From: Oscillospiraceae bacterium
GTDB lineage: Bacteria; Bacillota; Clostridia; Oscillospirales; Ruminococcaceae
NCBI GenBank assembly: GCA_051881875.1
Contig: JBJEQS010000128.1
Span: 1-47,670, forward strand
Reading direction: 5' to 3'
Length of the DNA: 47,670 bases
Both the position numbers and the translations under genes were made by a program. The number at the start of each line of letters is the position of its first letter. The first letter of the stretch is position 1. Positions 7,592-34,066 of this stretch are shown here, piece after piece. The notes beneath the pieces were generated by a model. The model was not told the DNA's origin, did not search any database, and was given only the letters and a program-made list of their open reading frames with translations.

Positions 7592-9259
7592 ATGATAAAT
7601 GCAGCAGTAAGTGAAAGTATTCCTGTTGTAAATCAGAACAGAACATCATGTTTGAAGAATGATGATGGCTTGCTTTGTGATGATTTTATGAGTAATATTC
7701 TTAAAGCGGCAAAGGAAATCGGTATAGGTGAAGAAAGTATGCCAATGGACAGTGAAAAAACTTGTTCAGAGCAGAACGATGATAATACTGAAAATCCTGA
7801 TGTGCTTATAATGTGTATGCAGATGAACAGTCTGAATGTGCCTGATATGCAGATACCTGAAAACAGCTTTGATATTGATATGCTGTCTGATGGTGAGAGC
7901 AGTTCATCGGATATAGATATTGCAGATGCTGAAAAAATCACAGCATTTTCAATGCAGAATGATGATTTATTGTATAAAAACACAAATTTATCCGATTTTA
8001 CAGTTGAAAATATGGACTCTCAGCCGATTATTCAGATGTACGATAATTTTTCTGATATTCAGGAAAATGTTCAGGATTATGATAACAGTGCTGATATTCA
8101 GACAGAAGTACAGGATATTGTATCTGTGAATGAAGACATTGTACTGCCGGAGATAACCGGTACTCAGAATACAGTTGATGAAAAAGTATACAATGATATA
8201 CAGAATACTGTAACGGATAATGTTCAGACTGACAGGAATGTTCCCGAAATGAATATGCAGACTGCGGCAGATGCTGTTCAGAATAATGAGAAAATTGCTG
8301 AAAATACAGAAAAACATGAGGTTCAGACAGTTGATTATTCGGACAAAATTCCGCAGGATAATGTACTTTCATATGTTCAGGCTGAAGTGGCAGGCAATTT
8401 CTCATATACTGAAAATGTCAAAGATGTTTCAGCTGTATCAGATAACAGAAAAACTGAAAATTCAGCTGTGAAATTAAGCGATGCTGATAATACGGGGACT
8501 GATAAAAACATTCCGAAAATCAGTGTGCAGTTCAGTAAGTCGGGAAACAATGCAGAGGCTGGATTGTCGCAGGATAAAAGCAGCTCATTCGGCGAAAACA
8601 GTCAGAAAAGTGAGTCATTCAGCGATGCTCTTATAAGAGAACACAGAATTCAGTCCGATTTTCGCAGGAATATTGATGCGGTAAAAGAGATAATCCGAAA
8701 TATTGATGCAAATTCATCAGGCGAAAAATCAGCGGCTCAGCTCACAGAACTTTCAGCCGGAAATCTTGATATTGCCGGTATGCAGACATTATTCATTCCG
8801 CACAATGATTTACAGATAATGGCTGATATTCAGAACAATGAGTTTGATGAAACCTCGGAAATAGTCAATCAGACTTTCAATGGAATTGTTTCAAAGATAA
8901 ATGGCAATGGCGAACAGTTTACCATAAAACTTAATCCTGATGGACTGGGAGAGATTACTGTAACCATCATTAAGCATGATAATTCGAGTATTCTTACTCT
9001 TTCAGCCTCGGAAACAAAAACTGCTGAAATACTTAACAGCAATATGAAAGTTCTTCAGGAAAATCTGAAATATCTTAACATTGAGATTGCTGATGTACAG
9101 GTTTCTGAAACTGAACAGTCAGAAAATTATCAGAGTTATAACCATGGTTTTGAACAGAACAGTTCAAAATATAAGAAAAATGATGGAAAACATCATAACG
9201 ATGATGATGATATTGAAGAAAATGATTATTCAGTGGAAGATGTTCTGTATTCTGATTAA
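7592..9259 (+). CDS. fliK: Hook-length control protein FliK
   Basis: 555 aa. It has a long acidic, low-complexity N-terminal and central region. The C-terminal Flg_hook-like segment is FTIKLNPDGLGEITVTIIKHDNSSILTLSASETKTAEILNSNMKVLQENL. Confidence 0.85.
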   Translation: MINAAVSESIPVVNQNRTSCLKNDDGLLCDDFMSNILKAAKEIGIGEESMPMDSEKTCSEQNDDNTENPDVLIMCMQMNSLNVPDMQIPENSFDIDMLSDGESSSSDIDIADAEKITAFSMQNDDLLYKNTNLSDFTVENMDSQPIIQMYDNFSDIQENVQDYDNSADIQTEVQDIVSVNEDIVLPEITGTQNTVDEKVYNDIQNTVTDNVQTDRNVPEMNMQTAADAVQNNEKIAENTEKHEVQTVDYSDKIPQDNVLSYVQAEVAGNFSYTENVKDVSAVSDNRKTENSAVKLSDADNTGTDKNIPKISVQFSKSGNNAEAGLSQDKSSSFGENSQKSESFSDALIREHRIQSDFRRNIDAVKEIIRNIDANSSGEKSAAQLTELSAGNLDIAGMQTLFIPHNDLQIMADIQNNEFDETSEIVNQTFNGIVSKINGNGEQFTIKLNPDGLGEITVTIIKHDNSSILTLSASETKTAEILNSNMKVLQENLKYLNIEIADVQVSETEQSENYQSYNHGFEQNSSKYKKNDGKHHNDDDDIEENDYSVEDVLYSD

Positions 9260-18382: not shown

Positions 18383-19450
18383 ATGGCAGACAGCGGTGAA
18401 AAAACCGAACAGCCTACCGCCAAAAAGCGGCAGGATGAACGAAAGGAAGGTAATGTCTTTCAAAGCAGGGAGATTAACACCATAGTTTCACTGGTGGCTG
18501 TATTTTACAGCTTCAAACTGCTTTATTCCCTTACAAGTTCACAGATTTTACAGTCAATAGAAAACTGCTTCAAATCCGCTGCGGATATATCTGTTCTGGG
18601 TTCATCCGAACTCTCAAAGCTTTTTTCTGACGGGCTTATAACTTTTGCTCTGGCATCTTTGCCAATACTCCTCATAGCCGCCATTTCAAATATAATCCCT
18701 GTTATTGCTCAGACAAAAGGTCTTGTATCATTTAAGTCGATAAAACCGAAATTCAGCAATATAAATCCTCTCAGCGGCATAAAAAAGATGTTTTCGCTTA
18801 AAAGCATGGTAGAACTTCTTAAATCCATAATAAAGATTACTGTGCTTATATATATTGTTTACAGTGAACTTAAAAAGAAAATTCCTGATTTTTACAAATT
18901 TATAGATATGGAACTTAGTGAGGTATGTGCCTATACTGGAAACTTATTTATGAGCATACTTGGAAAGCTGATAATAGCTTTTGTATTTATAGCGGCTCTT
19001 GATTATATTTATCAGAAATGGGAATATGAGAAAAATCTCAAAATGACCAAGCAGGAAGTAAAGGAAGAATATAAAAATACTGAAGGTGACCCGCAGATTA
19101 AGGGCAAAATCAAACAGAAACAGCGTGAGGCTTCACAGAGGCGTATGATGCAGGCTGTTCCCGAAGCCAATGTTGTTATCAGAAACCCTACTCACTATGC
19201 TGTTGCTCTGAAATATGAGCATGGACAGAATTCAGCACCGATTGTTGTTGCAAAAGGTAAGGACAATATAGCTTTGAAAATTATTGAAATTGCAGACGCA
19301 CATGATATTGTAATAGTAGAAAACAGACCTCTTGCAAGAGCATTATATGCTGAAGTTGAACTGGATAATGAAATTCCAAGCACTTACTATCAGGCAGTTG
19401 CCGAAGTAATCGCTTTTGTATACAGAGTCAAGGAAAAGGAACTGAAATAG
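18383..19450 (+). CDS. flhB: Flagellar export switch protein FlhB
   Basis: N-terminal GEKTEQPTAKKRQDERKEGNV. The autocleavage motif NPTH is present (VVIRNPTHYAVALKY). Confidence 0.95.
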   Translation: MADSGEKTEQPTAKKRQDERKEGNVFQSREINTIVSLVAVFYSFKLLYSLTSSQILQSIENCFKSAADISVLGSSELSKLFSDGLITFALASLPILLIAAISNIIPVIAQTKGLVSFKSIKPKFSNINPLSGIKKMFSLKSMVELLKSIIKITVLIYIVYSELKKKIPDFYKFIDMELSEVCAYTGNLFMSILGKLIIAFVFIAALDYIYQKWEYEKNLKMTKQEVKEEYKNTEGDPQIKGKIKQKQREASQRRMMQAVPEANVVIRNPTHYAVALKYEHGQNSAPIVVAKGKDNIALKIIEIADAHDIVIVENRPLARALYAEVELDNEIPSTYYQAVAEVIAFVYRVKEKELK

Positions 19451-19451
19451 A

Positions 19452-21512
19452 ATGAAAAAATTTTTAAAACTTATGAGCAATGCTGTTGCGGCATTTGTAA
19501 TACTGATAATATTTCTGCTTATCATACCGCTTCCGACCGCACTGCTCGACTTTATGTTCATAGTGCAGCTCGGTCTGTCGCTGATTATACTGCTTACTTC
19601 AATGTACATAAAAGAACCTCTCGAATTTTCAGTGTATCCTACAATGCTCCTTGTTACCACCATATTCCGACTCGGTCTTAACGTTTCATCAACACGTTCC
19701 ATACTTACAAATCAAGGGTATGCAGGCGAAGTTGTAAAGACATTCGGTCAGTTTGTTATCCGTGGAAATGTAATAGTCGGTCTTGTTGTATTCCTTATCA
19801 TCGTATTGGTACAGTTTCTTGTAATTACCAAAGGTTCAGAGCGTGTAGCTGAAGTATCTGCACGTTTCACACTTGACGCTATGCCGGGTAAACAGATGGC
19901 TATTGATGCTGACCTCAGCTCAGGTCTTATAGATGAGGCAACAGCAAGAATAAGACGTGAAAAAATTCAGCGTGAAGCGGACTTTTTCGGCTCAATGGAC
20001 GGTGCTTCCAAATTCGTTAAGGGCGACTCAATCATGTCGATTGTTGTAACGCTTATAAACCTTATAGGCGGTATAGTAATCGGTTTTGTCGAAAAGGTCG
20101 GAACATTTCAGGAAATTATGAATATATACACGATTGCCACTGTCGGCGATGGTCTTATGTCACAGATACCGGCACTGCTCATATCGGTTGCCACAGGTAT
20201 GATGGTTACACGTTCATCATCAGAGGACGATTTCAATACAGATTTCATAAGACAGTTCCGTTCACAGCCGCTTGCACTTATAATTGCAGGTGTGGCTCTT
20301 ATATGTCTTACATTCATAGGATTTCCGCCCTTGCAGACATTCCTTTTCTCAGCAATAATGATAGTCCTTGGAATACTTCTTCTGCGTCAGGCAAAGCCAA
20401 AGCCGCAGGAGGAAGAACAGCTTGCTCAGGAGCCTGTTGAGGAAATTACAAGCGAAGCTGTATATTACAGAAATATCGACAATCTCTATTCACTTCTCAA
20501 TGTTGAACTCATAAGAATAGATTTCGGATACAGTCTTATACCGATAGTCGATGAAAACAGCGGAGGAAGTTTCCTCGACAGAGTTGTAATGTTCAGAAAA
20601 CAGTATGCAAGCGAGATGGGCTTCATTATTCCGCCTGTTCAGCTAAAGGACAGCGGTGAACTCAATCCGAACCAGTATTCAATATGCCTGAAGGGAGAAG
20701 AAGTAGCAAGAGGAGATGTGCTTATAGACCATTACCTTGCACTTGCTCCGGGCGATGAGGATACCATTGACGGTATTGATACAATCGAACCGGCATTCGG
20801 CATAAAGGCTAAATGGATAAGTGAGGATAAGAAAGTAAGGGCAGAAATGCTCGGATATATGCTTATCGACCCGACTTCCGTTATAATAACACATCTTTCC
20901 GAGGTTATAAAGGCTCATGCATATGAACTGCTTAACCGTCAGGAAACAAACAATATGCTCAATAACCTTAGAAAAACAAATGAAGCTGTTGTAAATGAGG
21001 TTATTCCGGGAGTAATTACAGTAAGTGAACTTCAGAAAGTTCTCTGCCGTCTGCTTCAGGAGGGTATTCCGATAAAGGATATGGAAACAATCCTTGAAAC
21101 TCTTGGCGATTACGGCGTTAAGATAAAGGATACAGATATGCTTACCGAGTATGTAAGACAGGCTCTCAAAAGAACTATTTCACATAAATTCTCCGAGGCA
21201 GGTCAGATGAAAGTTGTAAGCCTTGACAGCAGTGTTGAAAATGCTATTATGGCATCAGTAAAGAAAGTTGACAGCGGTTCATATCTTGCACTTGACCAGT
21301 CCACTATTCAGAAAATCGTTCTGTCTGCCACTGAACAGATTGATAAGATTAAGGAGCTTGTTCAGATTCCTATCGTTATTACATCACCGGTTGTAAGAGT
21401 ATATTTTAAAAAACTCATAGACCAGTTCTATCCGAATGTTGTTGTAATCTCGTTCAATGAGATTGATTCAAATATTCAGGTTCAGGCGTTGGGAAATATA
21501 GCTATAAAATAG
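19452..21512 (+). CDS. flhA: Flagellar export gate protein FlhA
   Basis: 686 aa of the FHIPEP family (ARFTLDAMPGKQMAIDADL...GASKFVKGD). Confidence 0.96.
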   Translation: MKKFLKLMSNAVAAFVILIIFLLIIPLPTALLDFMFIVQLGLSLIILLTSMYIKEPLEFSVYPTMLLVTTIFRLGLNVSSTRSILTNQGYAGEVVKTFGQFVIRGNVIVGLVVFLIIVLVQFLVITKGSERVAEVSARFTLDAMPGKQMAIDADLSSGLIDEATARIRREKIQREADFFGSMDGASKFVKGDSIMSIVVTLINLIGGIVIGFVEKVGTFQEIMNIYTIATVGDGLMSQIPALLISVATGMMVTRSSSEDDFNTDFIRQFRSQPLALIIAGVALICLTFIGFPPLQTFLFSAIMIVLGILLLRQAKPKPQEEEQLAQEPVEEITSEAVYYRNIDNLYSLLNVELIRIDFGYSLIPIVDENSGGSFLDRVVMFRKQYASEMGFIIPPVQLKDSGELNPNQYSICLKGEEVARGDVLIDHYLALAPGDEDTIDGIDTIEPAFGIKAKWISEDKKVRAEMLGYMLIDPTSVIITHLSEVIKAHAYELLNRQETNNMLNNLRKTNEAVVNEVIPGVITVSELQKVLCRLLQEGIPIKDMETILETLGDYGVKIKDTDMLTEYVRQALKRTISHKFSEAGQMKVVSLDSSVENAIMASVKKVDSGSYLALDQSTIQKIVLSATEQIDKIKELVQIPIVITSPVVRVYFKKLIDQFYPNVVVISFNEIDSNIQVQALGNIAIK

Positions 21513-21595
21513 CATAAGATTTTTTCAGAATTATTTTGAATACAGGATTATTAAGCTGTTACATTAAAACAGTATAAACAGGGAGGTTTGTCCTG

Positions 21596-22381
21596 ATGGC
21601 AGAAAATATTAATGATGCAAAACTGTCTGATGATGAGTTTTATCAGATGCAGAAGAAATATAAAGAAACAGGCGATGTCAGGATACGCAATAATCTTGTC
21701 ATGCAGTACAGCTATATACCTAAAATGGCGGCTATGCAGATGAGAAGTCTTGCAGCAAGCTATGCTCAGGTTGATGATATGATTAATCAGGGAATGCTTG
21801 CCCTTATTGACAGTGTTGAACGATTCGATTATAATAAAGGTATAAAGTTTGAAGCATATGCTTTTATGAGAGTAAAAGGAAGTATAATCGACCTTATCAG
21901 AAAACAGGACTGGATTCCAAGACGTGTCAGAACTACAAAAAAGGAAATATCAAATACAATAAGCCAGTTAAGCAATGAATTAGGACGTGAACCGACTGAC
22001 GAGGAAATTGCTGCAAAAATGGGGATTACCGTTGAGAAACTTGCCAAGTATTATGAGGAAATTGCCGGCGGAGTAGTCTTTTCATTTGAGGAGCTTATCC
22101 AGAATGTTGCCCAGATGGGAAACGTATTTGATTCAGCTGTAAATGATGATATAACTCCGGAGAAAAGAATTCTGAAACAGGAACTAAGAGAACTGATAAA
22201 AGAGGCTCTTGACAGTCTTCCTGAACGTGACAGACTTGTTGTTACATTGTATTATTATGAAAATCTGACTTTATCTGAAATAGCACAGGTGCTTGATGTT
22301 ACCATACAGCGTGTTTCACAGATAAATTCAAGAGCAATTTTAAAAATCAAAAATAAATTAAAGGATTATATGGAAATTTAG
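21596..22381 (+). CDS. fliA: Flagellar sigma factor sigma-28 (FliA/SigD)
   Basis: 261 aa with sigma-70 regions 2, 3 and 4 (NLVMQYSYIPKMAA; RVKGSIIDLIRKQDWIPRRVR; LTLSEIAQVLDVTIQRVSQINSRAI). It lies directly after flhA, with no flhF or flhG between them. Confidence 0.9.
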   Translation: MAENINDAKLSDDEFYQMQKKYKETGDVRIRNNLVMQYSYIPKMAAMQMRSLAASYAQVDDMINQGMLALIDSVERFDYNKGIKFEAYAFMRVKGSIIDLIRKQDWIPRRVRTTKKEISNTISQLSNELGREPTDEEIAAKMGITVEKLAKYYEEIAGGVVFSFEELIQNVAQMGNVFDSAVNDDITPEKRILKQELRELIKEALDSLPERDRLVVTLYYYENLTLSEIAQVLDVTIQRVSQINSRAILKIKNKLKDYMEI

Positions 22382-22397: not shown

Positions 22398-23141
22398 ATG
22401 CTTGCCGGATTTTATACTGCAGCGTCAGGTCTGCTTGTTCAGCAGAGAAATATCAATGTTATCGGCAATAATATAACAAATGCTGAAACACCCGGTTATC
22501 GTACAGAACGTGCTGTTATGAGCACTTTTGACCAAGAATATCTTGTGAGGGTTCATGACAACGGAATAAAGACATATGTAGGCACAGGCTCTCCTGTAAG
22601 TCTTGTTGACGATATTCCTGTAAATTATGACGGAAGCTCTTTAAAGGAAACTGAAAATCCTTTTGACCATGCCATAGTAGGTGAGGGATACTTCAATATT
22701 CAGGGTGCAGAACGTGAATATATGACAAGAAATGGAAATTTTAATGTTGATACAGAGGGATACCTCGTTCTTGAAGGAGTCGGCAGAGTTATAGGTCAGG
22801 ACGGATTTATTAATGTCGGAGGCTCTGATTTTACAGTTGATACACATGGCGTTGTATACGATGCAGACCATAATCAGCTGGGTACTCTTAAAATTACCAT
22901 GCCTGAAAATGAACCAGACCTTGTAAAGTATAACAATGCATTGTTCATATGTACAGGAAATACAAGAAATGCTGAAAATTATTCTGTATATCAGTTCTGT
23001 CAGGAACGTTCAAACCTTGATGTAAATCAGGAATATACAAGGCTTATTGAGGCTCAGAGTGCTTTCAAGGCTTGCAGTACAGCTTTGACTATCGTTGATA
23101 CAATGAATGCAAAAGCTGCTCAGCTTGCAAGTATTACATAG
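22398..23141 (+). CDS. flgF: Flagellar distal/proximal rod protein, FlgF/FlgG family (paralogue 1)
   Basis: N-terminal FYTAASGLLVQQRNINVIGNNITNAETPGYR and C-terminal NLDVNQEYTRLIEAQSAFKACSTAL. It starts 16 nt after fliA. The F-versus-G assignment is tentative. Confidence 0.85.
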   Translation: MLAGFYTAASGLLVQQRNINVIGNNITNAETPGYRTERAVMSTFDQEYLVRVHDNGIKTYVGTGSPVSLVDDIPVNYDGSSLKETENPFDHAIVGEGYFNIQGAEREYMTRNGNFNVDTEGYLVLEGVGRVIGQDGFINVGGSDFTVDTHGVVYDADHNQLGTLKITMPENEPDLVKYNNALFICTGNTRNAENYSVYQFCQERSNLDVNQEYTRLIEAQSAFKACSTALTIVDTMNAKAAQLASIT

Positions 23142-23600
23142 CGGCGGCGAGTCGCCGCTTCCGGTGTTTAGTCAATATTTTTCTTTGTGGTGGTCAATAA
23201 TATGAACTTACCTGACAAATAACCATATATCAGCATAAAAGCGGTCGGGTAGGTAAAAAGTTTATCAATAAAGATAAGTAACGAAATTGCCAGCGGCGGC
23301 TTGCCGCAAGTTTGTGCGGACACAGTTCGCAAATTTGCTGATATTTAACGTAAGTTTGACAACCAAAAGAAAAAGTTTTGGTCAAGCTTTTTCAAAAGCT
23401 TGCAGTTTCCAAAGGCAGAGCCTTTGGTCGCTCGAATGAGCGAAATGGGGGTGCGGGGGCGGCAGCCCCTGCCTTTAAAGGCGTTCAAAAAAGTTTTTTG
23501 TCAAACTTTTTCCAAAAAAAGTTTGTGCGGACGCAGTTCGCAGAACAGAAACAATAAAATTCCCAGTAAACCATAACTGGCGACTATACAGAAAAAGTTT
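23142..23600 (+). repeat. Composite array of short hairpin repeats (copy B, the most complete)
   Basis: A chain of at least 9 short palindromes, including GCGGCG..CGCCGC, CCAAAAG..GTTTTGG, CAAGCTTTTT-C-AAAAGCTTG, CCAAAGGCAGAGCCTTTGG, CGCTCGAATGAGCG, GGGGC..GCCCC, CAAACTTTTT..AAAAAGTTTG and GCGGACGCAGTTCGC. Its sub-modules recur at 1-111, 24880-24953, 43814-43900 (inverted) and 47589-47670. Confidence 0.85.
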
Positions 23601-23624
23601 TACAAGATAAAGGAAACATTAATT

Positions 23625-24098
23625 ATGAAAAAAAGTTTTTTATTGTTACTTGCAGTAATATCATTGTGTGCCTGCGGAAAAGAGGATACTGTAAAGCCTG
23701 AAGCAAATCAACAGACAGATACACAGATTCAGTCCGAAGTACAGCCGCAGGAGAAAGGCTGTAAAATCAGCGGCTCTTTTACCGTTACTGTTCATGAAGT
23801 GATTCCTGATTATGGTGTTGATAGTGATATTCCGGGTGTTGCTGTTGTAACAGAATTTCAGAGTCATCCTTTTACTATTCGTGTAGGCGAGGAAATTGGC
23901 AAAAAACTTATTGATGAACAGGCTGATAATGTTTTTGTGTTTACAATAGAGCCAATCGAAGTGGATTGCAGTAAAGAAGATGTACAAAAAATGGAGCTTT
24001 CTTCTATCGTGTGGGAATTCCCTGTCAAAATCACAGATTACAGACCGGCAGAGGAAAATGAACTTGGACTTGAAAGTCTTCATTTAACTATCGAATAG
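23625..24098 (+). CDS. Predicted lipoprotein of unknown function, embedded between the two rod genes
   Basis: Signal peptide plus lipobox (MKKSFLLLLAVISLCAC|GKE). The RBS is AAGGAAA. The antisense ORF 23661..24083 has the Phe/Ile/Cys/Arg-rich composition of a shadow ORF. Confidence 0.7.
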   Translation: MKKSFLLLLAVISLCACGKEDTVKPEANQQTDTQIQSEVQPQEKGCKISGSFTVTVHEVIPDYGVDSDIPGVAVVTEFQSHPFTIRVGEEIGKKLIDEQADNVFVFTIEPIEVDCSKEDVQKMELSSIVWEFPVKITDYRPAEENELGLESLHLTIE

Positions 24099-24129
24099 CA
24101 ACTAAAATAACGAAAGGTTGATTTTTTAT

Positions 24130-24879
24130 ATGAATATTGCATTTTATACAGGTGCATCGGGACTTAGAGCCTATCAGAACGGCGTCAATGTTATATCTCA
24201 CAATATAGCCAATATCGGAACAGCAGGCTATAAAAGCACTAATTCTGCTTTCAGAGAGCTGGTTTACAGCAATATGGATACAAATATAAATCGTGAACTT
24301 GATGAAGATGATAAAAACAAAGTAGGTCATGGAGTTAAGTTTTCAGGTCAGGATATGATTTTCAGTCAGGGCAATCTTCAGTCATCAGAGTATCCGCTTG
24401 ATTTTGCTATAGCAGGCGACTGCCTTTTTCAGATTGAGCGTGATGGAAGAATTGAATATACAAGAAACGGTCAGTTCGATATAAGTGTTGAAGGTGACGG
24501 AAATTATCTTGTTACTGAAGACGGTGCTTATGTTATGGATAAGTATGGCAATCATATGAAAGTTATGTATGATGAATATGGACATATTTTAAACAGCGAT
24601 ATGGCTGATGAGTTCGGTCTTTATAAGTTTGATAATCCTTATGGTCTTTATCGTACAAATCATTCAAGCTTTCTGGTAAGTGATATTTCAGGCGAACCGC
24701 AGAGAATTGACCCTGACCATGAAAACAGAATTTATCCGAATGCTTATGAAAATTCAAATGTAAATCTTGCAAAGGAAATGTCCGACCTTATCGTTACTCA
24801 GAAATCATATCAGTTCAGTGCAAAGGTTGTACAGGTTGCTGATGAAGTAGAGGAAATTGTAAATACTCTCAGAAAATAG
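24130..24879 (+). CDS. flgG: Flagellar distal rod protein FlgG family (paralogue 2)
   Basis: The ATG at 24130 follows GAAAGG. N-terminal MNIAFYTGASGLRAYQNGVNVISHNIANIGTAGYK and C-terminal NVNLAKEMSDLIVTQKSYQFSAKVV. Confidence 0.88.
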   Translation: MNIAFYTGASGLRAYQNGVNVISHNIANIGTAGYKSTNSAFRELVYSNMDTNINRELDEDDKNKVGHGVKFSGQDMIFSQGNLQSSEYPLDFAIAGDCLFQIERDGRIEYTRNGQFDISVEGDGNYLVTEDGAYVMDKYGNHMKVMYDEYGHILNSDMADEFGLYKFDNPYGLYRTNHSSFLVSDISGEPQRIDPDHENRIYPNAYENSNVNLAKEMSDLIVTQKSYQFSAKVVQVADEVEEIVNTLRK

Positions 24880-24953
24880 CGGCAAGTTTCCGTCTGATGA
24901 AATTCAATGTAAGCCACAGCGGGCGACCGGTGGTCGCCCCTACAAAAATAAAA
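24880..24953 (+). repeat. Hairpin-mosaic repeat, copy C
   Basis: CTGATGAAATTCAATGTAAGCCACAGCGGGCGACCGGTGGTCGCCCCTACAAAAATAAAA aligns with 51-111 at about 85% identity by eye, in the same orientation. Confidence 0.8.
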
Positions 24954-24986: not shown

Positions 24987-26399
24987 ATGGCTGATATGCT
25001 TAAAATCACAACACCTATTGCAAATAAAAATTTAATACATCATACAAATGATGCAAGAAATATTGACGGTGTAGGCTTCAATATGCAGGATACCACCAAA
25101 GTAGTCAAATCCTCGCCCGATTCAGAACTGCTCGGACAGAATAACAGCTTTTTTGATGACGGAGCTCCGAAACTCCTTCTTGATATGCTGAAAGACCCGG
25201 CTGTTACAGTTACATTTCTTAAAAACATATTTTCGCTTCAGGAAATGCTCACTTTGATGCCGCTGAAAAATAATCCTGTTACTGAAGAACTGGAGCATCT
25301 TTTTGATGGTCTTATGCTTAATCCGGAGCAGATTGCTTCAGAGATGAAAAATCAGGAAAATAATGCGACTGCATTCAAAGGAGAATTATTCGATTTTCTC
25401 AGAAATATTACCACTGAAAATCAAAGCCCTGAAATGAGAAATGCAGTTGCCAATCTTCTCAAATCAATAAGCTGCGAATCAAGTCGTGATGAAATTTTAA
25501 GCTCAATATGCAATGGTCTGAAATTTCTTGCAGATGGTTTTGAGGGAAGTGCAACGCTTACTGACAGAATGAATGTTCTTGCAGAAAAATTCAGTAATCC
25601 TGAGGAGGCAGGCAAAAATTTCAATGTACTGAAAAAGGAAGTTGCCGAGCTTATGGACGATGCTGAGAAAAGTGTGCTTTTTTCGGAAAAGTTATCAAAG
25701 ATGGTCAATATTGTAAGATACAACCTTACACGATACAATACAAACGATAATTTTACAAATGATGCCGCAAGAAGCCTTTTAAGACTTTTAAGCAATCGTC
25801 AGGACAAATCATATTTTGTGGAACTGCTGAGGAATTTTACAGGAAAGGATAATGCTGCGGCTGAAAATATGGAAAGCTCCAAAGTAATGGACGCTCTTGT
25901 TGAAATAATAAGCAGGCAGGCAAATGAGGCGGGTTCGCAGGTTATCAATTCCGATAAGATTGATAAAATAATCGAAAGTCTGCTTTCATCTCCATGCAAT
26001 TTCACTCCTCTGCTTCATTTTGTTATCCCTGTTGAAGATATGGATATGAAAGCTTTCGCTGAGATATGGATTAATTCGGAGGAAGATGAGGAGAAGAAAT
26101 CCTCTGGCGGCAGCGTCAGAAATAATACCCATATGCTTATTGTTTTTGATATTGAGAGTATAGGTCAGTTTGAAATGGAACTGTTTGTAAATGACAAGAA
26201 TATTTCCATGTCATTGCTCTGTCCGAAAGAGTATTATGATGACTTTAAGGATTCAGCAAAAAGCTTCAATGAATGTATCAGTTTTTCAGATTACAGATTT
26301 AAGGAGATAAGAGTTGACAAGCGTGAACATCAGCGTTCACTGATTGAGGTATTCAAAACTCTCCCTTATAAAAGGACTGGTGTAAATGTCAAAATCTAA
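24987..26399 (+). CDS. Uncharacterised 470-aa protein with a FliK-C-terminal-like (Flg_hook-like) end
   Basis: RBS GGGAGGAGG. The body is largely helical. The C-terminal MLIVFDIESIGQFEMELFVNDKNISMSLLCPKEYYDDFKDSAKSFNECISFSDYRFKEIRV matches the hydrophobic/Gly pattern of this locus's FliK segment FTIKLNPDGLGEITVTIIKHDNSSILTLSASETKTAEILNSNMKVLQENLKYLNIEIADVQV. Confidence 0.5.
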   Translation: MADMLKITTPIANKNLIHHTNDARNIDGVGFNMQDTTKVVKSSPDSELLGQNNSFFDDGAPKLLLDMLKDPAVTVTFLKNIFSLQEMLTLMPLKNNPVTEELEHLFDGLMLNPEQIASEMKNQENNATAFKGELFDFLRNITTENQSPEMRNAVANLLKSISCESSRDEILSSICNGLKFLADGFEGSATLTDRMNVLAEKFSNPEEAGKNFNVLKKEVAELMDDAEKSVLFSEKLSKMVNIVRYNLTRYNTNDNFTNDAARSLLRLLSNRQDKSYFVELLRNFTGKDNAAAENMESSKVMDALVEIISRQANEAGSQVINSDKIDKIIESLLSSPCNFTPLLHFVIPVEDMDMKAFAEIWINSEEDEEKKSSGGSVRNNTHMLIVFDIESIGQFEMELFVNDKNISMSLLCPKEYYDDFKDSAKSFNECISFSDYRFKEIRVDKREHQRSLIEVFKTLPYKRTGVNVKI

Positions 26400-26679
26400 A
26401 AGGAATAAAGCGGTTGCTCTTAAATATAATGCGGAAAAGGATAAAGCTCCGATTGTAATTGCTTCCGGATATGGTACAATTGCTGACAAGATAATTGATA
26501 TTGCGGAAAATAATGGAATACCTGTGTTCAGAGATGACAGTGCAGCATCAATGATGTGTATGCTTGAGGTGGGAACGACAATCCCTCCTGAACTCTATGA
26601 GGTAGTTGCTGCTATTTATTGTCAGCTGCTTAAAACATCTGCCGATATTAAAAACAGAGAAAAATTACGAAAAAAATAA
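26386..26679 (+). CDS. Stand-alone FlhB C-terminal (FlhB-CC) domain protein, FlhX/YlqH-like, without an NPTH site
   Basis: KAVALKYNAEKDKAPIVIASGYGTIADKIIDIAENNGIPVFRDDSAASMMCMLEVGTTIPPELYEVVAAIYCQL aligns with FlhB residues just after NPTH (YAVALKYEHGQNSAPIVVAKGKDNIALKIIEIADAHDIVIVENRPLARALYAEVELDNEIPSTYYQAVAEVIAFV). Its ATG overlaps the upstream gene by 14 nt. Confidence 0.85.
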   Translation: MSKSKRNKAVALKYNAEKDKAPIVIASGYGTIADKIIDIAENNGIPVFRDDSAASMMCMLEVGTTIPPELYEVVAAIYCQLLKTSADIKNREKLRKK

Positions 26680-26708: not shown

Positions 26709-26737
26709 TTTACTTAGCATTTTTCTTTGTGTATAAT
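26709..26737 (+). promoter_or_regulatory. Candidate sigma-A promoter for the PilZ gene
   Basis: TTTACT (26709-26714), a 17-nt spacer, then TATAAT (26732-26737), in an AT-rich gap. Confidence 0.35.
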
Positions 26738-26869: not shown

Positions 26870-27514
26870 ATGATTTTGCCTTCAAACTATGTGGATTCTT
26901 TGTGTGAAGTGAAAAATATGACAAATCATATCATTGCAAGAGGCAAGATTGTTGAAATTGATGACGAATCAATAAAAATTGCTGATAAAGATGGAAATAT
27001 GAATTTAGTAAGCTACAATGTTGAGGTCAAGGTAAATATATTCAACAGAAAACATGGTTTCAGAGTGATAATCGGAAAGGTTCTGACATCTACTCCTAAT
27101 GAAATGAAAATTACAGATATTATTTCTCTTGTTGAATCTGAAAGAAGAAATTTTTTCAGAGTGGATATATGCAATCCGACAAATATGTATGTAGCTGATA
27201 CTTTTATTGAGGCAAAGGTCACAGAACCTGATGAGGTCGTTATAAATGATATAAGCCTTAGCGGTCTTCGCATTGAAACAAAAAAAGAACTGAAAATGGA
27301 TACAGTTGTATGGATTGAAATGCAGATTAAAAACAGAGTGTATTTCTGGCAGTGCAAAATAATGCGTATTACATTTTTCAAGGAACTTGGTGTTTACCAC
27401 TATGGCTGTCAGTTTGTAGTCGATGATGATGAAAGCTCAAAAGGCAATGATGCACTGTGTTCATATATTTTCCAGAAACAGCGTGAACAGATTAACAATA
27501 AGAAAGACGATTGA
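26870..27514 (+). CDS. PilZ-domain c-di-GMP receptor, MotI(YpfA)/YcgR-like flagellar brake/clutch candidate
   Basis: Both c-di-GMP motifs are present: RxxxR (ERRNFFRV) and D/NxSxxG (NDISLSGL). An N-terminal beta-rich PilZN-like half is present, the protein is 214 aa, and the RBS is AAAGGAGG. Confidence 0.8.
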   Translation: MILPSNYVDSLCEVKNMTNHIIARGKIVEIDDESIKIADKDGNMNLVSYNVEVKVNIFNRKHGFRVIIGKVLTSTPNEMKITDIISLVESERRNFFRVDICNPTNMYVADTFIEAKVTEPDEVVINDISLSGLRIETKKELKMDTVVWIEMQIKNRVYFWQCKIMRITFFKELGVYHYGCQFVVDDDESSKGNDALCSYIFQKQREQINNKKDD

Positions 27515-32363: not shown

Positions 32364-33269
32364 TTATTTATGAACAGGGTTGGCTCTTAAAGTTATTATA
32401 GCATTTATAAGAGCTGAATTTATCTTGGCATAACTGCTTTCAGCAATTGCATCGGGAACAGTATGTTCATTCCTTTTGATTACATACTGAGGAGAGAGCT
32501 TATTGAGGGCAGTTGCAATTACTTCAAGTTTGCAGTCAGGACACTTGCAGCAGTTAAATTTGTCAAGTATTTCATCAATTTTATTGTTAATCATAACCTC
32601 GTTTATATTTATAAGTTCAGGAAGCTGAACCTTTGGAGCAGATTTGACAGAAGGCTTGTTCTCAGGAATTTCATTGAGAATATCATCAACTGAGAATTCC
32701 TTTTTGCTGTCAGAAACTGTGGAGTTATCGGATACAGCAGTTTCGTCCCGGATTGCTTTATCAAACGGAACATTTTCTGCCAAAGGGGTATTTTCAGTGA
32801 TAACTTCGGCATCATAATTTTTTACAATCTGAACAGGCTGCGGCGGTTCGGGAGTTTCAGGCTGAATATTTTCGGCAGGTTTTTTCAGTTCAGGCTTTTT
32901 TTCGTTAACAGCATTAGGAGCAGGCTGAATGTTTTCAGCAGGTTTGGGCGGTTCGGGAGGCTGATGAATCGTTTTTTCCTTTTCTGAGAGTATTTTTACA
33001 ATGTTTTCATTTTCAGAGTCTATCTTTTGGGCTGCTCTGTCTTCTTCGGCGGCCATGCGGGCTTTTCTTTCACTTGCACTTTCTGCCGGAGTTTTTGGTT
33101 TGAATTCCTCCGGATTTATATCAGCTTTTTCAGGAAATGAAATTGAGGAAATATTATTATCATCATTAACGTCAACATATTCCTCGAAACCACTTCTTTT
33201 CATATGTCCTGTCGGCATTATTTTATTATACATAATCTCTTTATGTATATCACGTTTTGTTTTCTTCAT
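32364..33269 (-). CDS. ComFB-domain protein with a basic N-terminal peptide and a long Pro/Glu/Lys-rich linker
   Basis: C-terminal INEVMINNKIDEILDKFNCCKCPDCKLEVIATALNKLSPQYVIK matches the ComFB-type CxxC helix pattern. Residues of roughly 40-190 are low complexity, with KPAENIQP duplicated. The RBS is GAGG. Confidence 0.65.
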   Translation of the reverse strand: MKKTKRDIHKEIMYNKIMPTGHMKRSGFEEYVDVNDDNNISSISFPEKADINPEEFKPKTPAESASERKARMAAEEDRAAQKIDSENENIVKILSEKEKTIHQPPEPPKPAENIQPAPNAVNEKKPELKKPAENIQPETPEPPQPVQIVKNYDAEVITENTPLAENVPFDKAIRDETAVSDNSTVSDSKKEFSVDDILNEIPENKPSVKSAPKVQLPELININEVMINNKIDEILDKFNCCKCPDCKLEVIATALNKLSPQYVIKRNEHTVPDAIAESSYAKINSALINAIITLRANPVHK

Positions 33270-33304
33270 AAACAGACCTCATTCATAAAATTTTCGGTAT
33301 CTTA

Positions 33305-34066
33305 TCAAAGCCCTCTGTCTTTAAGTTCATTTGCGAGCATATTGAAATCCTTGACGCCACGGCAGCGTTTTGCATAATCTGTGATGTCGCACTGGAGTGA
33401 CTGTGCTTCTGACAATTCATTGCAGTTTCTGATGATTGTATTGAAAACCGGCACGTTGATGCTTTCGGAAATCATCTTTGCAGTACCGAATACTTCACGA
33501 TGGAGAAGTGAACGCTTATTGAATTTGTTTACAAGTATGCCGAGTGGTTTTAAGTTAGGATTGCATGACTGCTGGATATGCTCGACTGTTTCATATACCA
33601 TGGTTATGCCCTGAAGACTGAATATGTCAGGCAGCATAGGCATTATGACATAATCAGAGGCTGTAAGTGCGTTTACAGTGAGTATTCCAAGTCCCGGAGG
33701 AGAATCTATAAGTATAAAATCATATAATGGTTTTATACTTTGTATAGCTTTTGAGAGAAGATATTCTCTGTTGTATCCGGTGAATTCAAGTTCGACACTG
33801 CTCAGAAGGATATTTGATGGTATTATATCTGTCATTGCACATCTCTGGACAGCATACTGGGCATCTACATCTCCTGTAAATACTTCATATACGGTAGGAG
33901 AAACTTCGGTTTCCGCACCAACACTGTATGAGAGATTGCCCTGAGGGTCCATGTCTATTGTAAGAATTCTTAAACCACGTTTGCTGAGTACAGAAGCAAG
34001 TGCATTGACGATAGTAGTTTTGCCGACACCGCCTTTTTGCGTTATAATTGATATTACTTTGCTCAT
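33305..34066 (-). CDS. Orphan ParA/Soj-family P-loop ATPase
   Basis: The deviant Walker A KGGVGKTT lies at residues 10-17, with a Soj-type DMDPQGN and Walker B FILIDSPPG. The RBS is AAGGAGG. No parB-like gene is present in the window. Confidence 0.88.
   Translation of the reverse strand: MSKVISIITQKGGVGKTTIVNALASVLSKRGLRILTIDMDPQGNLSYSVGAETEVSPTVYEVFTGDVDAQYAVQRCAMTDIIPSNILLSSVELEFTGYNREYLLSKAIQSIKPLYDFILIDSPPGLGILTVNALTASDYVIMPMLPDIFSLQGITMVYETVEHIQQSCNPNLKPLGILVNKFNKRSLLHREVFGTAKMISESINVPVFNTIIRNCNELSEAQSLQCDITDYAKRCRGVKDFNMLANELKDRGL

Follow-up and report, generated by a model that had tools for sequence, protein, structure and literature searches.

K2-FlhX, an Oscillospiraceae form of the FliK2-FlhX / YlqG-YlqH gene pair in a flagellar locus

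Introduction

Why would a flagellar locus with canonical genes for FliK and FlhB also encode a free C-terminal domain of FlhB, and why next to a second large protein? This question is raised by a 47,670-nt stretch of DNA from an Oscillospiraceae bacterium (GenBank assembly GCA_051881875.1, contig JBJEQS010000128.1), here referred to as the window, in which an open reading frame (ORF) for a 470-aa protein (24987..26399), denoted K2 in the following, is succeeded by an ORF for a 97-aa protein (26386..26679), denoted FlhX, both on the plus strand. An initial annotation, made from the sequence alone, had described the pair as a FliK-like protein combined with a soluble mimic of the FlhB-CC domain. 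The pair is, however, not specific to this locus. K2-FlhX represents in Oscillospiraceae a widespread type of gene pair, FliK2-FlhX / YlqG-YlqH, and is thus a diverged, mis-annotated version of a known but uncharacterised module.

Results

FlhX is a soluble FlhB-CC variant

FlhX matches only the last part of the Pfam family Bac_export_2 (positions 262-332 of 335, E 2.7e-18). Its best NCBIfam model is TIGR00789 (flhB_rel, 'FlhB-like'; E 4.3e-27), with a score of 94.1 bits that lies below the curated cut-off of 117.35. The canonical FlhB of the window (18383..19450, plus strand; TIGR00328, 417 bits) served as reference, and FlhX is 39% identical to its residues 273-342. Since the NPTH motif of this FlhB occupies residues 268-271 and the match begins at residue 273, FlhX starts one residue past the cleavage motif. 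As the initial annotation had recognized, both NPTH and the entire transmembrane/CN part are missing, and the N-terminal segment MSKSKRNK runs straight into AVALKY. FlhX is hence a soluble, 'cleaved-like' FlhB-CC domain.

It is nevertheless a variant and no plain copy of this domain, and in this point the earlier description has to be amended. Where FlhB proteins have the PLARALY switch motif, FlhX is one residue shorter and reads differently, namely DDSAA-S[LM][LM]CMLE in Oscillospiraceae, PALV-NLLMQVD in Cupriavidus and RTLV-ELMRHLT in Bacillus. In FlhB, suppressor mutations that bypass fliK map to the tyrosine of PLARALY, according to work cited in PMC3040844. In some FlhX homologues (P0282, P0284, P0285, P0305 and P0331) the conserved CC core is followed by a charged low-complexity C-terminal extension of 40-65 residues.

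The two genes are coupled and conserved together

Both ORFs were found as annotated, with the ATG of FlhX lying 14 nt inside the K2 gene (stop/start overlap 26386..26399, plus strand) and preceded by AAGGA 9 nt upstream. Conservation of this arrangement was surveyed in 80 species-representative genomes of Oscillospiraceae (Ruminococcus, Anaerotruncus, Marasmitruncus, Angelakisella and others). FlhX directly follows K2 in 79 of them, the exception being a contig that ends at this point, and 69 of these 79 loci have an overlap of exactly 14 nt. The K2 and FlhX genes are translationally coupled through their overlap. In one locus two K2 copies, one full and one partial, precede FlhX (L050:5870-10394), and in another 1.35 kb are inserted between K2 and FlhX (L028:6001-9046).

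Mean identity to the window proteins, calculated over 15 loci, amounts to 75% for FlhX, 75% for FlhA, 66% for FlhB-CC, 56% for FlhB-N and 46% for K2. FlhX is under very strong purifying selection. The pair adjoins flgG in some lineages, and in Anaerotruncus colihominis it adjoins a divergent cheA-cheW-cheR-cheB operon.

K2 is predicted to be a three-part protein

K2 itself matches no family in Pfam or NCBIfam. Its homologues in Oscillospiraceae number 630, with lengths of about 465-475 aa, and there are 522 family representatives at the level of 50% identity. The full-length model, with a predicted local distance difference test (pLDDT) value of 61, divides the protein into a disordered N-terminus, a helical-repeat region and an α/β domain, to which the alignment adds a conserved tail; all coordinates are on the plus strand. 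The N-terminal residues 1-99 (24987..25283) are predicted to be disordered (pLDDT below 50) but are conserved in sequence, with the motifs MAD..., SELL.QNNG and LKDPsVTV.FLKNI in alignment A1. Residues 100-335 (25284..25991) form predicted helical repeats (helices with pLDDT 70-90) with weak HEAT/ARM matches. This region varies in length within the family, whose members range from 444 to 985 aa owing to insertions or duplications around profile positions 255-292; the variation clusters at the junction that precedes the C-terminal domain. In P0121 (837 aa), for instance, profile segments 99-200 and 254-333 are repeated; a cluster look-up of the divergent long variants returned no names. The α/β domain comprises residues 343-445 (26013..26321). 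The remaining residues 446-470 (26322..26396) constitute the most conserved part of the protein, a tail of the pattern RSL.EVF..LP.KRTG.[DN]VKI in which R450, S451, L452, F456, L459, P460, R463 and G465 are invariant.

Many NCBI records of Oscillospiraceae label K2 homologues 'antitoxin'. No toxin or antitoxin family match was found for K2 in Pfam, NCBIfam or PADLOC, and the label was rejected.

The C-terminal domain of K2 resembles T3S4 domains in its predicted fold

The last 146 residues of K2 were also modelled alone from an alignment of 35 sequences, resulting in a pLDDT of 83 and a predicted template modelling (TM) score of 0.76. When this domain model was compared by Foldseek with 350,542 PDB chains, the first rank was taken by the SS (T3S4) domain of PscP (5cuk; probability 1.00, E 0.017, TM 0.50 over 76 columns) and the fourth by FliK-C (2rrl; probability 0.98). 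Both structures also stood out in a search with the model of the whole protein. Structure prediction thus agrees with the initial annotation as far as a FliK-type C-domain in K2 is concerned, and the resemblance resides in residues about 343-445 and not, as had been proposed, in the last roughly 60 residues.

At the level of sequence the claimed similarity to FliK could not be reproduced: BLASTP, Pfam and NCBIfam returned nothing measurable. The comparison partner, the canonical 555-aa FliK of the window (7592..9259, plus strand), lies in the fliJ-fliK-flgD position and carries Pfam Flg_hook at residues 435-511 (52 bits); BLASTP of K2 against it gave no match. A homologue search with the C-terminal FliK fragment and a metagenome scan with full-length FliK found nothing. 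A FliK-C alignment was instead built from 48 distinct FliK ORFs located downstream of fliI in metagenome loci. Against this alignment, hhalign placed the K2 C-domain in the expected register, with K2 residues ~379-444 on the Flg_hook core, at P 0.011, a value inside the decoy range, as the best of 65 decoy fragments also reached P 0.011. Three of 16 FliK-like targets scored better than all decoys.

A hidden Markov model (HMM) of the K2 C-domain was run over 1776 six-frame ORFs, and FliK ORFs made up 8 of the top 30 matches (hypergeometric 4e-6, the ORFs not being independent). The best match in this set was the FlhX partner of Acetoanaerobium, with E 0.0025 and 113 aligned residues over the Flg_hook region. 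Furthermore, Bacillus YlqG could be aligned to the K2 C-domain up to its last residue (hhalign P 0.0013-0.003), the two proteins ending in ...GGRKVDVKI (B. velezensis YlqG) and ...KRTGVNVKI (window K2) with V[DN]VKI in common. Other profile comparisons were negative. Profiles made from the entire K2 alignment and from the C-domain found only chance matches among PDB sequences, the FliK-C HMM scored no better with the K2 family than with reversed sequences, the full-length A2 HMM gave no signal with YlqG and other FlhX partners, and hhalign gave no significant match of alignment A1 with either full-length YlqG or the protein of Acetoanaerobium. Judged by sequence, the link between the K2 C-domain and FliK is suggestive only.

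Related pairs in other bacteria

PLSDB was searched with FlhX by tblastn, and the matches obtained were chromids and mis-filed chromosomes. The 'plasmid' records NZ_CP083716.1, NZ_CP154629.1 and NZ_CP069303.1 have sizes of 0.8-4.6 Mb and are read as chromosome pieces because the annotated NZ_CP083716.1 carries the core genes rplS, rnhB, sucCD and topA; these three records served as source of Bacillus and Clostridia sequence.

In Cupriavidus metallidurans CH34 a 447-aa protein with a Pfam Flg_hook match (E 7e-12) is encoded upstream of a 91-aa FlhX with an overlap of 4 nt, and two other Cupriavidus encode upstream proteins of 447 and 477 aa, again with a 4-nt overlap with FlhX. Acetoanaerobium noterae (Clostridia) has an upstream protein of 499 aa in which Flg_hook reaches 29.4 bits (cut-off 29.8) beside DUF6240; a gap of 3 nt separates its gene from that of FlhX, and rnhB is a neighbour. 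In Bacillus velezensis, YlqG (567 aa, L161:2277-3980) overlaps YlqH by 4 nt, with rnhB upstream and sucCD downstream. YlqG contains no Flg_hook match, and the Pfam scan gave no support for its annotated name 'glycosyl transferase'. The layout shared by the window, Cupriavidus, Acetoanaerobium and Bacillus consists in a protein of 450-570 aa whose gene overlaps or abuts that of FlhX. The rnhB/sucC synteny known from Bacillus was sought in the 80 Oscillospiraceae loci and found in none.

Setting of the pair within the flagellar locus

The window is taken up by a single large flagellar region and comes from a Clostridia genome of low GC content (about 37%). A first block contains flgB, flgC, fliE, fliF, fliG, fliH, fliI, fliJ, fliK, flgD and flgE, followed by motA, motB, fliM, a FliN/FliY-type switch gene, fliO, fliP, fliR, flhB, flhA and a FliA/SigD-type sigma factor gene. 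Then come two rod genes, the K2-FlhX pair, a PilZ gene, a flagellin gene and a GT2/TPR gene, with flgM, flgN, flgK and flgL further on. The pair is located between the flgG-type rod gene (24118..24879) and the PilZ gene (26870..27514), outside the flgB-to-flhA-sigD block, in accordance with the initial annotation.

The PilZ-domain protein (plus strand; Pfam PilZ, E 6.4e-10) is the conserved 3' neighbour, its gene following FlhX in most of the 80 related loci. The best sigma-70-like site of the region (26709..26737) is found upstream of the PilZ gene, which is probably a transcription unit separate from K2-FlhX. Because the protein exhibits the motifs RxxxR (RNFFR) and DxSxxG (DISLSG), it is predicted to be competent for cyclic di-GMP binding, resembling a brake of the YcgR/MotI type. 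Between flgG and K2 a GC-rich hairpin is present (24919..24941, GGGCGACC-GGT-GGTCGCCC); it is no canonical terminator, since the stretch behind it is A-rich and not T-rich.

The two rod genes (22398..23141 and 24118..24879) are separated by ~980 nt (23141..24118), while in the closest relatives, L001 and L002, they are adjacent. Within this insert, direct repeats of 24 nt occur at 23308 and 23519, together with several inverted repeats and an ORF for a lipoprotein-like protein of 157 aa (23625..24098) with no family match. An Rfam scan of the whole window, the rod-gene insert included, gave no match. No flhF- or flhG-like ORF is visible between flhA and the sigma factor gene (19452..22381), and a MinD/ParA-like ATPase gene and a ComFB-domain gene are found on the minus strand further downstream (32364..34066).

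Discussion

Comparison with known systems

The closest counterparts of K2-FlhX are FliK2-FlhX of Pseudomonas putida (PP_4328-PP_4329), which forms a FliA-dependent operon (10.1101/2021.08.29.457346), and the pairs of Cupriavidus; the designation 'flhX-fliK' is used in the literature for Nitratiruptor. In P. putida and Cupriavidus, as in the window, a protein with a FliK-type C-domain (447-477 aa in the counterparts; predicted from the fold in K2) is encoded by a gene that overlaps one for an FlhB-CC protein of ~91-100 aa, and K2-FlhX, too, lies in or near flagellar genes. The proteobacterial FlhX partner is characterized by a Pfam-significant Flg_hook domain, an Ala/Gly/Pro-rich FliK-like body and a 4-nt overlap. 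K2, in contrast, has no detectable Flg_hook sequence, a predicted helical-repeat body, two additional β-strands before the core of the domain model, a conserved ...V[DN]VKI tail and an overlap of 14 nt. With Bacillus YlqG-YlqH it shares the coupling of a large protein (~570 aa there) to a small FlhB-like one (93 aa, by 4 nt), the missing Pfam Flg_hook match and a C-domain alignable to the last residue with a nearly identical end (VDVKI in YlqG). Unlike K2-FlhX, YlqG-YlqH is situated beside rnhB and sucCD and not beside flagellar genes, and full-length homology between YlqG and K2 is not demonstrable.

FlhX of the window is, like Helicobacter pylori FlhX (HP1575), a stand-alone FlhB-CC homologue. 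The predicted T3S4-type fold and the very conserved tail of K2, together with the CC domain of FlhX, recall the FliK-C / FlhB-CC switch of Salmonella. There, however, FliK is a secreted ruler encoded beside flgD and its target CC domain is part of membrane-bound FlhB with PLARALY, whereas K2 and FlhX are both predicted to be soluble and FlhX is devoid of PLARALY. The Xanthomonas pair HpaC/HrcU-C differs in belonging to an injectisome, in having no free CC gene and in requiring NPTH for HpaC binding.

A possible function of K2-FlhX

Three published results bear on function. FlhB-CC acts as an inhibitory lock which maintains the early mode of the export gate; FliK-C ejects it, and for this the final residues of FliK are essential (PMC13344023). 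HrcU-C, an FlhB-family C-domain, works in trans and is bound by the cytoplasmic T3S4 protein HpaC (PMC3040844). H. pylori FlhX is partly able to replace FlhB function, as cited in 10.1101/2021.08.29.457346. Taken together, they lead to a view of FlhX as an exchangeable CC variant with K2 as its keeper. K2 and FlhX would be made at about 1:1 and would form a cytoplasmic complex, in which K2 binds FlhX through its T3S4-like domain and tail, as FliK-C does with FlhB-CC. At the export gate this complex could govern whether the variant CC subunit occupies FlhB-CN, and such occupancy would modulate or re-set the early/late state of substrate specificity. K2 would then be a keeper or loader-unloader of FlhX and no hook ruler. 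As a whole, this explanation, a FliK2-FlhX / YlqG-YlqH module whose complex acts at the export gate, is slightly favoured by us. The initial annotation's idea that a soluble mimic of FlhB-CC is made together with a protein bearing a FliK-type switch domain is supported by the fold match and by the conserved genomic context, but not at the level of sequence. Such a pair might, as proposed there, titrate, time or back up the switch.

Several observations weigh against the gate-acting module. K2 does not reach the gathering score of Pfam Flg_hook (PF02120), and just 3 of 93 K2 relatives scanned singly match this profile (E about 0.007); most hhalign scores with FliK and FliK2 fall into the decoy range; and the K2 C-domain HMM recurrently, if weakly, matches a FliG-like protein of roughly 340 aa. 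The Foldseek E-values are modest (0.017 and 0.12), with TM 0.50 over 76 columns only, and because of these E-values homology of the K2 C-domain to T3S4 is regarded as quite probable but unproven. Binding of HpaC to HrcU-C in Xanthomonas needs NPTH (PMC3040844), which FlhX does not have. Natural K2-FlhX fusions were searched for and none was found, and scanning for a sigma-28 motif (TAAA-N14-17-CCGATAT-like) upstream of K2 revealed no site; the pair may be transcribed by read-through from flgG.

The main rival regards K2 as a secreted second ruler or switch, i.e. as a genuine paralogue of FliK which is exported via the type III secretion system of the flagellum, with FlhX as a cytoplasmic chaperone or docking adaptor that would bring K2 to the gate or protect its T3S4 domain until export. 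FliK and YscP, the flagellar and animal-pathogen T3S4 proteins, are secreted (PMC3040844), the 99 N-terminal residues of K2 are predicted to be disordered, its middle is varied by segment duplication in a ruler-like manner (444 to 985 aa), and the proteobacterial FlhX partners resemble classical disordered FliK proteins. Yet the FxxxPhi gate-recognition motif carried by the local FliK and by rod and hook proteins was not found in K2, the predicted disordered N-terminus is conserved in sequence to a degree unusual for an export signal, and the middle is predicted as a folded helical repeat instead of an extended ruler. Moreover, the position of the hook-length gene, with flgD and flgE, is already held by the canonical FliK, K2 being located after flgG. 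Secretion of K2 as a second ruler is consequently considered unlikely.

FlhX might also be a spare FlhB-CC that acts alone, K2 being an unrelated, co-transcribed helical scaffold or regulator whose T3S4 resemblance is convergent or a model artefact. Such a reading would account for the missing Pfam and NCBIfam backing for FliK in K2, for hhalign scores no better than those of decoys for most targets and for Foldseek E-values above 0.01. It is hard to reconcile with two independent models that place the PscP T3S4 domain and FliK-C at or near the top of all PDB chains searched, with the Pfam-significant Flg_hook domain of the same-position gene in other phyla, and with the exactly kept overlap, and appears rather doubtful. 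A toxin-antitoxin or other non-flagellar module, or a decaying fragment of a duplicated flhB, has only database names in its favour ('antitoxin' for NCBI homologues of K2) and is highly improbable given that PADLOC, Pfam and NCBIfam yield no toxin-antitoxin family match, that the pair always occurs in a motility context (flgG or che genes and the PilZ gene), and that FlhX is intact in 79 of 80 loci and as well conserved as FlhA.

A further function can be envisaged, although we hold it to be improbable. After FliK has ejected FlhB-CC from the finished hook-basal body, FlhX, as a CC variant devoid of PLARALY, could re-occupy FlhB-CN, with K2 delivering or withholding it. The gate would thereby be re-armed, i.e. 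brought back into a state competent for early export or changed in some other way, as might be needed, for instance, in repair or regrowth.

Implications

Ever since it was named, FlhX/YlqH has remained an orphan in flagellar biology. Its conservation in Oscillospiraceae equals that of FlhA, an exactly conserved overlap ties it to a partner with a predicted FliK-type switch fold, and the two-gene layout recurs in Betaproteobacteria, Clostridia and Bacilli. For annotation, the names 'antitoxin', 'glycosyl transferase' and 'hypothetical' should be corrected to FliK-like partner of FlhX. Given that FlhB-CC is an ejectable lock (PMC13344023), a free CC variant together with a T3S4 keeper is a candidate for a second level of control over the switch, and ylqG-ylqH makes the question testable in a tractable organism, B. 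subtilis. If re-arming by FlhX were true, the specificity switch, supposedly irreversible, would turn out to be reversible in the many phyla in which the pair is present.

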